A stretch of DNA of 64,000 nucleotides from an uncultured Pseudomonadota bacterium (GTDB taxonomy: Bacteria; Oederibacteriota; Muellerivitia; Muellerivitales; Muellerivitaceae). The stretch covers positions 384,001 through 448,000 of the forward strand of contig CAVYRH010000004.1 in the NCBI GenBank assembly GCA_963770835.1, given 5' to 3'. Below are positions 4,097-9,024 of the stretch, one piece after another. A program made the translations under genes and the position numbers. Numbering within the stretch: position 1 is the stretch's first letter; each line of letters starts with the position of its first letter. The notes under the pieces are model-generated. The model was not told the DNA's origin and ran no database searches. It saw only the letters and a list, made by a program, of their open reading frames with translations.

Positions 4097-4278
4097 CGGA
4101 ACTATGTACTTGGCACAGCAACCCAATAAACCCTCGCCCCTTGGGGGAGAGGGTAGGGTGAGGGGTGCTTTTAATTAGCTACATCACCCTCACCCCGGCC
4201 CTCTCCCCTCAAGGGAGAGGGAGTAACCACGGCTAAAAGGCCAGTCTTAAAACGTGCTTTGCCAAGTGCATAGTTCCG
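4097..4278. mobile_element. MITE, 182 bp, with 19-bp TIRs and an 8-bp target duplication
   Basis: CGGAACTATGTACTTGGCA (4097-4115) versus TGCCAAGTGCATAGTTCCG (4260-4278), 1 mismatch; AATTTCAA at 4089-4096 and 4279-4286. Confidence 0.85.
4131..4222. repeat. REP-like nested palindrome (CCCTCTCCC...GGGAGAGGG / GGGTGAGGG...CCCTCACCC)
   Basis: Two hairpins inside the MITE; the same family recurs at 8846-8999. Confidence 0.8.
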
Positions 4279-4707: not shown

Positions 4708-5638
4708 GTGCGCTTAAAGTATTTCCGTTTCCTATTGGCCGTTCCCTTGGTTTTGACAGGGATGGCAGGCAAGGCGGTTTCAAAACCCGTGTCGAAAACC
4801 TTCCAAAATCCCATCCTCACCGGCTTCCATCCCGACCCCAGCGTTTGCCGGGTGGGGGAGGATTTTTACCTCACGAACTCCACCTTCGAGTTCTTCCCGG
4901 GCCTTCCCATCTACCACAGCCGCGACCTGGTCCATTGGGATCAGGTCGGCAACGCCTTGGACCGGCCCAGCCAGCTTCCCCTTAAGGGGGCGACGGACTC
5001 CGGCGGCCTCTACGCGCCGACGCTGCGCTATTGGAAGGGGACCTTCTACCTGGTCTGCGATAACGTCAGCGGGGGAGGGAATTTCATCGTCACCGCCAAG
5101 GACCCGGCGGGCCCCTGGTCCGAACCGGTCTGGGTGAACGACTACGGGATCGACGGCTCCCTATTCTTCGACGATGACGGGAAGATCTATTACCACCGGG
5201 CGGGCGCCGACAACGGGAACGGCATTTCCCAGGGGGAATTGGACCCTTCCACCCTGAAGCTCAAGGCACCCTTGAGGAAGATCTGGGAATATCCGGGCGA
5301 ATGGAACGAAGGCCCCCATCTCTATAAGGTCAACGGGACCTACTATCTGATTTCCGCGACCGGCGGCACCGAAAGCCACCACCAGGAAGTCGTGGCCCGA
5401 TCCAAAAGCCCTTGGGGCCCCTTCGAATCCAGCCCCCACAACCCGATGCTGACCGAGCGTGACGACCTGAAAAGCCCCATCCAATGCGCCGGCCACGCAG
5501 ACCTGTTCAACGCCCCCGATGGAACCTGGTGGGCGGTTTTCCTGGGGACTAGGCCCCAAGACGGAATGTCCGTGCTGGGCCGGGAGACCTTCCTGGCGCC
5601 GGTGGAGTGGACGAAGGATGGCTGGCCCATCGTGGGCA
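4708..5638 (+). CDS. GH43 beta-xylosidase/arabinofuranosidase, exon 1 (signal peptide and catalytic domain)
   Basis: NPILTGFHPDPSVCRVGEDFYL, YAPTLRY, EGPHLYK, GHADL, LGRETFLAPVEW-GWP; homology-like sequence stops abruptly after GWPIVG. Confidence 0.9.
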
Positions 5639-6439
5639 TCGTGCCAGAGGAGGGTTTGCAGAGCCAGCAGGTGAGGGAGTAGGCCGATGAGGGTCAACCC
5701 AAGTCCTGACCAGGTAATCACCAGAGAGCCTGGAAGTCAGCCCCCGGCGTAGGATCGAGAGGTCCTGCCCGAAACGGGGTCATAAACCTCATTTAGTGAG
5801 GGAACAATCCAGCAGTCCGCAACATCAAGTGAATCCTGCCGCTTCGTGAATGGGACACCGAAAGGTGCAAGGGGATGCCGAGCCGCGTGTCTACTGGCGA
5901 AGGCCACGATCCCGCTGAAGAATCTGGTAGCAAGCGGGGCAAGTCCTCCGGAGTATGGGGAACGGAATGTTGGAAAGGCTATGCAAGCAAGCTGGGAGAT
6001 CCTACCCGCCAAAAGACTTGCCGCTATAAGGCTAAAACCGAAAAGAGGCAAGGGTGGGAGGAAGTCGGAGGGGGTCACAGTACCGATGAAGGGGTGGACA
6101 ACAAAACCACCCTGAGGGAAGGACCCCTGCTTCAACCATGTGTCTCAAAGAAGGTAGGCGCTGGAGCATGCCCCAAAAAGGGCCAACAACTCTGTAGTAC
6201 CAAAGCGCGAGGCCTTTGACAACAGGCACTATGCCGAGCGGCCAAGGGGGAAGTCGAACCTGTAAAGCCGCCGGAGGAGAGGTTGTCGGAAAGCCGTATG
6301 ATCGAAAAGGTCACGTACGGTTTGACGAGGGGGCGCTGGAAACGAAGTGATGAGGGAACCTCGTTGGGGCACGGAACCGGAAACGGGGAAACAGATCAAG
6401 GAACCCTCTGCACACCATCGCGCCAGTGCTCTACTCTGC
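5639..6439 (+). ncRNA. ORF-less group II intron, 801 nt (boundaries +/-2 nt)
   Basis: D5 at 6290-6323 (AAAGCCGTATGATCGAAAAGGTCACGTACGGTTT, AGC triad). D6 pairs 6327-6339 with 6423-6436, with bulged A6433. D3-like segment at 6061-6133; GTGCC at 5641. Removal joins the GH43 halves in frame. Confidence 0.9.
6168..6246 (+). pseudogene. Remnant N-terminus of a group II intron-encoded RT
   Basis: ATG...MPQKGPTTL*, then after a frameshift KARGL*QQALCRAAK. This resembles the KVRxLQRxLYxAAK start of intron RTs and lies in the D4 position. Confidence 0.6.
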
Positions 6440-7611
6440 AGGACCATCACGTGGCTTTGGAAATGGAAGCGCCCAAGCTCCCACCACCCCCTCGTATGCC
6501 GAAGCCCGGCGACCGTGAGAACTTCAGCGCAAGGGGGTTGGGGCCCAGGTGGCTCCATATCCGCAATTTCGACCCGAAGAATTTCTCGTTTGAGGAGCGC
6601 GAAGGCTACCTGCGTATTCGGGCCGCGAAGGATAGCCTCGACAACCGTTGGGAAGGACCGGCTTTCGTGGGCCAACGCCAACCCGCTTTCCGTTTCACCG
6701 CCCGCACCGAAATGGAATTCGCTCCCCAACAAGACGGGGAAGAAGCGGGTCTTTGCGTGAGGGCCAACGAGGGCAACCATTACGAGATCGGCATAAGGAA
6801 GTTCGAAGGGAAGACCCAGCTATTCGTGCGCAACCGGATTATGAACCGGGAATATCTGATGGCCCAAGAGCCGGTGGCCTTAGGCCCGGTCCAATTGGAG
6901 ATATCGGGGTCCGAGGAGAAGTACCAGTTCGCCTGGTCCGCCGACGGCAAAACCTGGTCCACCCTCGCGGTTTGCCCCACCGCCGACCTTTCCCGGGAAA
7001 AAGCCGGGGGCTTTACCGGTACCACCCTCGGCCTCTACGCCACCGCCAACGGTAGGGATTCCCAGGCCTACGCGGATTTCGAGTGGTTTGAACTGCGTCC
7101 CGGTGTTGCCCCCCAACAAGGCCCGCTTACGCGCCGCCCCTCACCGACCCCATTAACCCCCTCGGACCATTGGCGAATCCTCACGAACCGGGAGGACTAC
7201 CGGGACAAGGCGGGTCTGGATTGGTCCTGGGATGTGGGTTATTCGGGAGGTGAGACCAACCGGAGCTGGGGGGGTATCGGGGGGGCCACGGACCAGGAGC
7301 TTTTCCAGCACGAGCGCTTCGGCAAGGATTTCAGCTATACCCTTCCCGTCTTGCCGGGCAAGTACCAGGTCCGCCTCAAATTCGTGGAGACGGCCGTGAA
7401 GAACAAGGGGGAAAGGGTCTTCGACGTCCTCATCAACGGGAAAAAGGCCCTGACTGGTTTTGACATCCTCCAAGAGGCGGGTGGCCCCGATAAGGCCCTC
7501 GAGAAGACATTCCGGGACGTCGCCCCCGACGCCCAGGGACAGATCACCCTTCGGTTCATCGCGTCCGCCGGGGACGCCAAGGTCTGCGCCATCGAGATCG
7601 AGCGCCAATAA
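6440..7611 (+). CDS. GH43 exon 2: beta-sandwich (GH43 C-terminal) domain plus malectin domain
   Basis: EEAGLCV and GGFTGTTLGLYA; malectin motifs ERFGKDFSY, VRLKFVE, RVFDVLING, AIEI. In frame with exon 1 (spliced product ~700 aa). Confidence 0.85.
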
Positions 7612-8750: not shown

Positions 8751-8845
8751 CCGGCCCGGTCCTTATTCTGCTGATAAACCCCAGAACAAATGAGTCAGGC
8801 CCATAGTTTATATATAAGGGCACCTCTAAAAATAACTTCAACGGC

Positions 8846-9024
8846 ACCCCTCACCCTAATCTTCTCCCGCAAGGGGCGAGGGGAATGGGGAATTTGCAGG
8901 TCTTTTACACCTTCTCCCTTGAGGGGAGAAGGCCGGGATGAGGGTGGTTTTGGTAAGCAAAGGCACCCTCACCCTACCCTCTCCCCTTGAGGGAGAGGGT
9001 TTCTTATGCCAAGTGCACAGTTCC
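8846..9024. repeat. REP-like palindrome cluster ending in a copy of the MITE right TIR
   Basis: Three CCCTCTCCC/GGGAGAGGG-type hairpins; TGCCAAGTGCACAGTTCC at 9007-9024. Confidence 0.75.

Follow-up and report, generated by a model that had tools for sequence, protein, structure and literature searches.

A recently mobile, ORF-less group IIB intron in a GH43 glycosidase gene, and paired changes of the first and penultimate bases among its relatives

The 64,000-nucleotide stretch of DNA analysed here, hereafter the window, carries a GH43 glycosidase gene that is split in two on the forward strand. Exon 1 (4708..5638, +) encodes a hydrophobic N-terminal leader followed by the full GH43 catalytic domain: it covers positions 1-288 of the 288 of the Pfam profile PF04616 (E 3e-92), has 5JOZ (BoGH43B) as its top PDB match (E 6e-98), and holds the three acidic GH43 motifs at motif positions D43, D149 and E201, which presumably play the catalytic roles. 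Exon 2 (6440..7611, +) encodes a GH43_C2 beta-sandwich (PF17851, E 6e-52) and a malectin domain (PF11721, E 1e-20). These matches identify the two frames as halves of one GH43 enzyme, as an earlier sequence-only reading of this DNA had proposed, and removing 5639-6439 gives a protein of 700 aa, the size that it had estimated. Its junction, ...GWPIVG-x-DHHVALEM..., was also right, the residue left as x being now read as Lys; its term "secreted" holds for the hydrophobic N-terminus, recognised by eye, and export itself is putative. With a GH43 propeller bearing the three acidic motifs and a GH43_C2 sandwich, both also found in two-domain enzymes of the BoGH43B type, the joined protein is predicted to be a xylosidase/arabinofuranosidase of that type. 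A full-length, intact paralog, 57% identical, lies on contig C8.

Read through without splicing, the first frame ends at a stop codon within the first 45 intron bases (5680..5682, +), which yields a product of 324 aa made of the catalytic domain and a short intron-coded tail. Upstream, the frame of exon 2 stays open across domains VI and V of the intron (window 6283-7611), with an ATG at 6298, so that gene callers give exon 2 an intron-derived N-terminus and report two broken genes; the split gene is a clean, if modest, case of this kind. A promoter scan found one site against 1.1 expected, and G/C-run hairpin repeats lie on both sides of the locus (window 4130-4225 and 8845-9000).

As judged from its sequence, the insert (5639..6439, +) is a complete and structurally intact group IIB intron from which the RT gene has been deleted. 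The covariance-model check called for by the earlier reading returned two matches above the Rfam gathering score, RF02003 (group-II-D1D4-4) at 5695-5827 (57.8 bits, cut-off 49) and RF00029 (Intron_gpII) at 6289-6439 (41 bits, cut-off 40), which are the sole two Rfam matches within the window. Among eight cuts tried, several restored a frame of 699-701 aa, and the boundaries were therefore set with orthologs. A search of 41 genomes gave 12 related loci, with the junction motif found in 11, and all 11 of these are uninterrupted. Only the cut 5639-6439 restores the junction G-K-D-H-H, which the orthologs of genomes G014 and G004 read with the same bases around it; the match to the intronless homologs is exact. 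The ortholog junction, EBS1, EBS3 and the domain I stem all agree on the ends 5639 and 6439 that had been proposed.

The consensus fold of five ORF-less elements shows the six-domain pattern, with two-sided changes in 40 of 232 pairs, together with a domain V with AGC triad and 2-nt bulge and a bulged A seven bases from the end, as in IIB introns. Counting from the 5' end, the pentamer UCGUG (5639..5643, +) precedes a domain I stem that begins at the sixth base, and the epsilon-prime loop (5770..5775, +) reads AAAC, against AAGC in the Rfam consensus, in every aligned row where the loop was found; it would pair with G3-U4 of the pentamer. Domains II (about 6000-6059) and III (6070-6127) follow at 6000..6127 (+), in agreement between individual folds and consensus structure. 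The shrunken domain IV (6132..6286, +) still holds the ribosome-binding site and the beginning of the RT gene that was lost, with a start remnant at 6168: aligned with RT-bearing relatives, it keeps about the first 25 RT codons and then jumps to the 3' end of the gene, in line with the earlier remark that no RT ORF is present. Domain V (6290..6323, +; AGC triad 6292-6294) had likewise been placed correctly, as both the RF00029 match and the fold indicate, and so had the branch-point A6433, unpaired in the fold of domain VI (6329-6436); Rfam, sister copies and folds together delimit domain VI with its terminal bases, penultimate G6438 and last C6439, at 6329..6439 (+). The insert is 801 nt long, one A more, in a run near 6175, than the 800 nt of the nine other full-length copies in the genome. 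Nearly all read depth lacks this extra A, so the length of 801 nt may be an assembly slip and its being a multiple of three is meaningless.

The target-recognition elements explain why the intron lies where it does. EBS2 (AUGGG, 5850..5854, +) is complementary to IBS2 (CCCAU, 5626..5630, +), where A/G variation among target sites fits the U of EBS2; EBS1 (UGUCUAC, 5888-5894), which stands in the Id3 loop with the delta base G5887 (5887..5894, +), makes seven of seven pairs, two of them G-U, with IBS1 (GUGGGCA, 5632..5638, +); and EBS3 (U5956, +), in the coordination loop, pairs with A6440, the way in which IIB and IIC introns recognise the 3' exon. Pairing at the GH43 site is thus full, and the intron is sense to the gene. 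Across 39 insertions with eight EBS1 sequences, the EBS1 register gives a mean of 6.95 pairs out of 7, against 1.3-3.6 in five other registers. EBS3 covaries with the +1 exon base (U-A 35, C-G 1 and G-C 1 among 40 insertions, the remaining three not scorable). EBS2-IBS2 amounts to five pairs in the lineage of the GH43 intron and is poorer in the second domain I type. The delta base is an invariant G in every row read, and candidate delta-prime and gamma/gamma-prime partners were found by inspection.

The search for sister copies, another suggestion of the earlier reading, revealed 14 5' ends of the ORF-less element in the host genome, corresponding to ten full-length copies, three copies with an IS110 element and one cut by a contig end. 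The alignment of the ten full-length copies has a single variable column, the extra A of the GH43 copy. The usual target, which the earlier reading had missed along with the unusual intron termini, is a 28-bp palindrome: 12 of the 14 copies stand after its right arm and two, the GH43 copy included, at look-alikes. Among the 12 copies with both ends, the GH43 copy alone interrupts a long reading frame. There, the codons W-P-I-V-G-K match the right arm of the palindrome, whose GUGGACA is mimicked by the IBS1 GUGGGCA. The two G-U pairs of this IBS1, against one at most sites, count against the reading given below; the same variant is used at a palindrome site by a relative (L058). By the same pairing rule, 61 empty non-palindrome positions of the genome pair as fully, with A at +1 (the classifier behind this count assigns some reverse-orientation palindromes to "other"), so that an occasional off-target insertion is to be expected.

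The 28-bp palindrome has 81 copies with at most two mismatches in the host genome and forms arrays on contigs C3, C4, C5, C11, C12, C15, C16, C17 and C23. Of 30 other genomes in the family, 26 have it, as does the one genome of the sister family, against none of the 67 others searched. The longest ORF between neighbouring palindromes of the same direction is co-oriented in 38 of 40 cases; the palindrome resembles the sites of integron cassettes in separating co-oriented genes in arrays. No integron integrase of the host genome reaches the TIGR02249 cut-off. A role as a tyrosine-recombinase site was considered and set aside, with no integrase over the cut-off and the site in 0 of 30 recombinase loci.

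The host genome has 18 RT hits, six of them in the clade of the GH43 intron. RT-bearing relatives are therefore present, where the earlier reading had suggested looking for an RT-encoding parent, but in all of the three closest, 92-93% identical in D1-D3, IS110 interrupts the RT gene near codon 8. Intact RT ORFs of the clade number three, on C11, C2 and C19, in introns that are 72-77% identical in D1-D3 to the ORF-less element (two types compared). The C11 RT, with RVT_1 and GIIM and no endonuclease domain, is 66% identical to the broken type. With the nearest RTs broken and the intact ones at about 66% identity, a working maturase today is uncertain. Another genome, G043, has an ORF-less copy 97.6% identical in D1-D3 and ten uninterrupted RT copies. 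The IS110 element (1521 bp) occurs in six copies, two on C26 and one each on C20, C11, C3 and C2, all 100% identical and all inserted at the same CT of intron domain IV (corresponding to window 6190), which they duplicate; three of them break RT genes and the other three lie in ORF-less copies. In the RT tree, the clade (YADD) stands apart from the g2/g3 references B.th.I3, Ni.ha.I1 and an Acidithiobacillus fragment, and its RT is 38-47% identical to six reference RTs. The sole g1 reference is a long branch in an open fork of this tree, which includes no Embleya RT, and g4, D and E references fall outside the comparison.

Together, these observations make it likely, in our judgement, that the GH43 gene was hit off target, through palindrome mimicry, by a non-autonomous and recently mobile IIB intron mobilised in trans. 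An internal deletion of the RT gene would have produced the ORF-less element, and the RT/maturase of related full-length introns would act in trans for both splicing and reverse splicing. EBS2 and EBS1 would recognise the 28-bp palindrome by its right arm, and EBS3 the base that follows; the W-P-I-V-G-K codons, by mimicking that arm, would have allowed a single insertion in sense orientation in the GH43 gene. With maturase present, the 700-aa enzyme would be made; otherwise, translation would stop at 324 aa. The penultimate G would match U1 and so keep the first-penultimate contact for the second splicing step. The insertion itself is a recent off-target landing of a mobile element. That it fell inside the GH43 gene looks accidental, and we judge its position at a domain boundary of the enzyme to be a coincidence of target mimicry. 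A cassette-site intron can in this way spill into ordinary genes by sequence mimicry.

The GH43 copy can probably splice out when a maturase is supplied in trans, since the pairings used in retrohoming also serve splicing; where an intron is well paired with its site, Mohr et al. (PMC2882425, open text) expect it to splice. The earlier claim that a CAZyme depends on RNA splicing goes too far: the insertion is recent, the relatives are intronless, the 57% paralog is intact and the nearest maturases are broken. Nor does the absence of any other lesion in either exon speak for splicing, as had been argued. The intron is identical, bar one base, to nine copies elsewhere, and the insertion is too recent for intact exons to be evidence. 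For the same reason, the dN/dS of both exons against four orthologs (0.14-0.20, with 0.12-0.22 among the orthologs) is no test of function after the insertion.

A dead or nearly dead insertion, which arrived by retrohoming, is now rarely spliced and has knocked out a gene whose loss the C8 paralog makes tolerable, is a reading to be taken seriously, although we put it somewhat below an even chance. It draws on the IS110 interruption of all three nearest RT copies, on the intact paralog, and on the observation that bacterial group II introns mostly act as mobile DNA outside housekeeping genes (PMC4424553, available text). It also draws on sequencing data: contigs of two RNA and two DNA runs contain no 5638-6440 joint. 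The RNA contigs are of intron sequence only, however, and in the RNA runs X13 and X14 small shares (0.10) consist of intron pieces of other strains, with the exons uncovered, so that these runs are silent on splicing and expression and constitute no test of either. No empty allele is listed in the DNA runs X1 and X2, where exon depth is only about 3-8. Against a dead insertion, the ribozyme of the GH43 copy is unchanged with respect to its nine sister copies, three intact RTs of the clade are still in the genome, and some T. elongatus IEPs are described as acting on several non-cognate introns (PMC2882425, open text).

It is improbable that the intron has been domesticated into a switch by which splicing chooses between the 324-aa catalytic form and the 700-aa enzyme. 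The geometry would suit such a role: the intron falls precisely where the catalytic domain gives way to the C-terminal beta-sandwich and malectin domains, exon 1 holds the whole PF04616 profile and the three catalytic motifs, and the stop codon comes early in the intron. Domestication of an ORF-less intron also has a precedent in C.te.I1 (PMC4024640, as far as its accessible text goes). But the GH43 copy has not diverged from its mobile sisters, the 11 relatives with a readable junction have no intron, and target mimicry fully explains the position.

The preferred reading, a trans-mobilised intron at an off-target site, has close published counterparts, here taken from the accessible parts of the cited papers. 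Bacteria have few ORF-less introns, and almost all of these stand beside related IEPs (PMC4424553). The closest case is TeI3 of Thermosynechococcus elongatus (PMC2882425), also a IIB intron that has lost its RT gene, whose ORF-less copies outnumber RT-bearing kin and are inserted at EBS-complementary sites; here too, the RT ORF is gone from domain IV and near-identical copies at such sites coexist with related IEP genes. TeI3 is mobilised in trans, as we infer for the present element, and one copy, TeI3j, lies in a glycosyl transferase gene where ours lies in a GH43 gene. ORF-less, trans-mobilised introns, even in such a gene, are therefore already published. TeI3 differs in being CL/IIB1 with an IEP that has an endonuclease domain, against only RVT_1 and GIIM here, and in its target, which here is usually an array palindrome. 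IIC-attC and attC-adjacent IIB introns (PMC7923331) likewise home to a repeated site that separates gene cassettes; IIC-attC introns have a short EBS1, no EBS2 and an integron attC target, in contrast to the 7-nt EBS1, the EBS2 and the palindrome edge without attC consensus found here. Class F and g1-g4 introns (Toro and Martinez-Abarca 2013, PMC3552965) are similar in being about 2 kb long, with an RT-X of 430-480 aa, a IIB fold and no endonuclease; among them, B.th.I3 (g2) starts GCGUG like some relatives of the present intron, but g2 has FADD where the present RT clade has YADD. C.te.I1 of Clostridium tetani (PMC4024640) likewise lacks an ORF and interrupts a bacterial gene whose product is exported (export being putative here), and is described as domesticated, spliced 8 nt upstream of GUGYG and devoid of a related IEP in its genome. 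By comparison, no such spacer is present in the GH43 intron, which has retained EBS2 and EBS3 and belongs to a set of many mobile copies.

The intron ends, UCGUG...CUCUGC, depart from the consensus GUGYG...AY, to which TeI4h (PMC2882425), B.th.I3 (PMC3552965), UHB.I2 (PMC7923331) and also RmInt1 are exceptions in the accessible text of these papers. A start at GUGCC with a 2-nt 5' extension, comparable to C.te.I1 or to fungal introns that splice upstream of GUGYG, was our initial reading, as GUGCC at 5641 looks like a consensus start. It was dropped and is now very improbable: relatives begin GUGUG and GCGUG in the same register as 5639, taking 5639 as base 1 puts the start of the domain I stem at base 6, G3-U4 of UCGUG suit the epsilon-prime loop, and the published start of B.th.I3 is GCGUG (PMC3552965 Table S2; sequence). 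UCGUG is therefore a variant GUGYG, and neither the register of the relatives nor the consensus fold leaves a spacer of the C.te.I1 type between IBS1 and this motif. That assembly collapsed a repeat into the GH43 gene is scarcely credible: the intron does occur in high copy number, and the GH43 copy differs from the others in a homopolymer, but the junctions are present in DNA contigs of two runs, each from a different study (X2 record 15, 5282-5666; X1 record 7, 6414-6853; each with fewer than 31 letters on the intron side, below the bridging bar, and one run possibly the source sample) and the insertion obeys all three EBS rules.

Over 40 insertions with both ends (five of 52 rows, with one end in view, were left out), the first and penultimate bases are U-G in 31 and G-A in nine, and never mixed, with end classes UC..GC 31, GC..AC 7 and GU..AC 2. 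One element accounts, through its copies, for many of these insertions, and related elements are not independent of each other; collapsed to sequence types, the insertions number 18, of which 12 are U-G and six G-A. The end label requires three changes on the D1-D3 tree and three on the D5-D6 tree, well-supported branches forcing two and three, respectively. Both end states are found in each of three types of domain VI and in the two main types of domain I, although the modules recombine. The C3 (U-G) and C2 (G-A) elements have nearly identical RTs, with branch lengths of 0.008 and 0.035.

We lean towards the view that this lineage has alternated repeatedly between G1/penultimate A and U1/penultimate G, as a natural compensation of the second-step contact. 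The contact, reportedly first described by Chanfreau and Jacquier, links the first and penultimate bases. If true, such exchanges would parallel the paired terminal changes that are also known in spliceosomal introns, and would make near-isogenic natural pairs available, for instance the C3 and C2 elements, which differ at both end positions; with both states among close relatives, the rule becomes testable with four constructs. Mutagenesis supports a contact between these bases in the second splicing step (PMC4238363, PMC3669008, accessible text). TeI4h is itself a U1 intron, whose mobility at 37 C fell from 3.4% to 0.5%, and from 39% to 8.4%, when T1G was introduced, a loss that its authors called surprising (PMC2882425, open text) and that had been left unexplained; the U1-A860 lariat of TeI4h is seen in 6ME0 (PMC12084557, accessible part). 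The paired exchange would predict why T1G alone is harmful. UHB.I2, 5'-UUGCG..GU-3' in the available text of PMC7923331, also combines a U start with a penultimate G. The present intron, by contrast with TeI4h and UHB.I2, departs from the consensus at both of its first two bases (UC), and its close relatives carry either U1 or G1, with the penultimate base changing in step. The ends UCGUG...GC and the paired U1/penultimate-G change are the candidate novelty of this work. Our search of openly accessible text, with subscription papers and figures outside it, found no description of natural U1/penultimate-G covariation, which is a weak indication. U1 introns having so far been known singly, we regard the paired change as mattering more than the split gene. 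The rule is not universal. More distantly related introns on Leptospira plasmids (L268-L271), whose 5' end was read as GUCCCG and whose first domain I segment is long, end in GC in two L. noguchii copies and in AC in two L. interrogans copies, so that a penultimate G does not need U1 everywhere; RmInt1, which ends CC, is also outside it.

Several further observations concern the 28-bp site and its occupants. The genome's sole PF00239 resolvase match, a 287-aa frame (C17:12042-12903), has its end about 20 bases or less from the 28-bp site that closes an array, and a 358-aa ORF with an IS110-like start (labelled by eye) is repeated directly after such sites (C3:45327-47167 and 81920-83904). A second RT intron family, represented by 12 RT hits of a single type, has its insertion point midway along the site (C3:1710, C4:579833, C16:40486 and others), and four ORF-less copies stand in tandem just downstream of one of its members. 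An assignment of this family to class C was rejected, since the RT carries FADD and falls with B.th.I3 (g2) in the tree. Two intron lineages at one 28-bp site, with IS110 at the start of the intron's RT gene, compose a layered conflict. In a third intron lineage (L054 and L062 in G014; L207 and L210 in G004), the intron end is followed directly by the final nine bases of the palindrome, which brings to three or more the lineages inserted at distinct positions of the 28-bp site. A loose 5'-end pattern scan of genome contigs gave matches scattered over unrelated taxa and was left unused. One ORF-less relative, L049 (G002:C90), has a 4-base deletion in domain V and is probably dead. Finally, contig C7 near 172000-179500 carries ORFs that look alphaproteobacterial by eye, possibly a foreign island or bin contamination.
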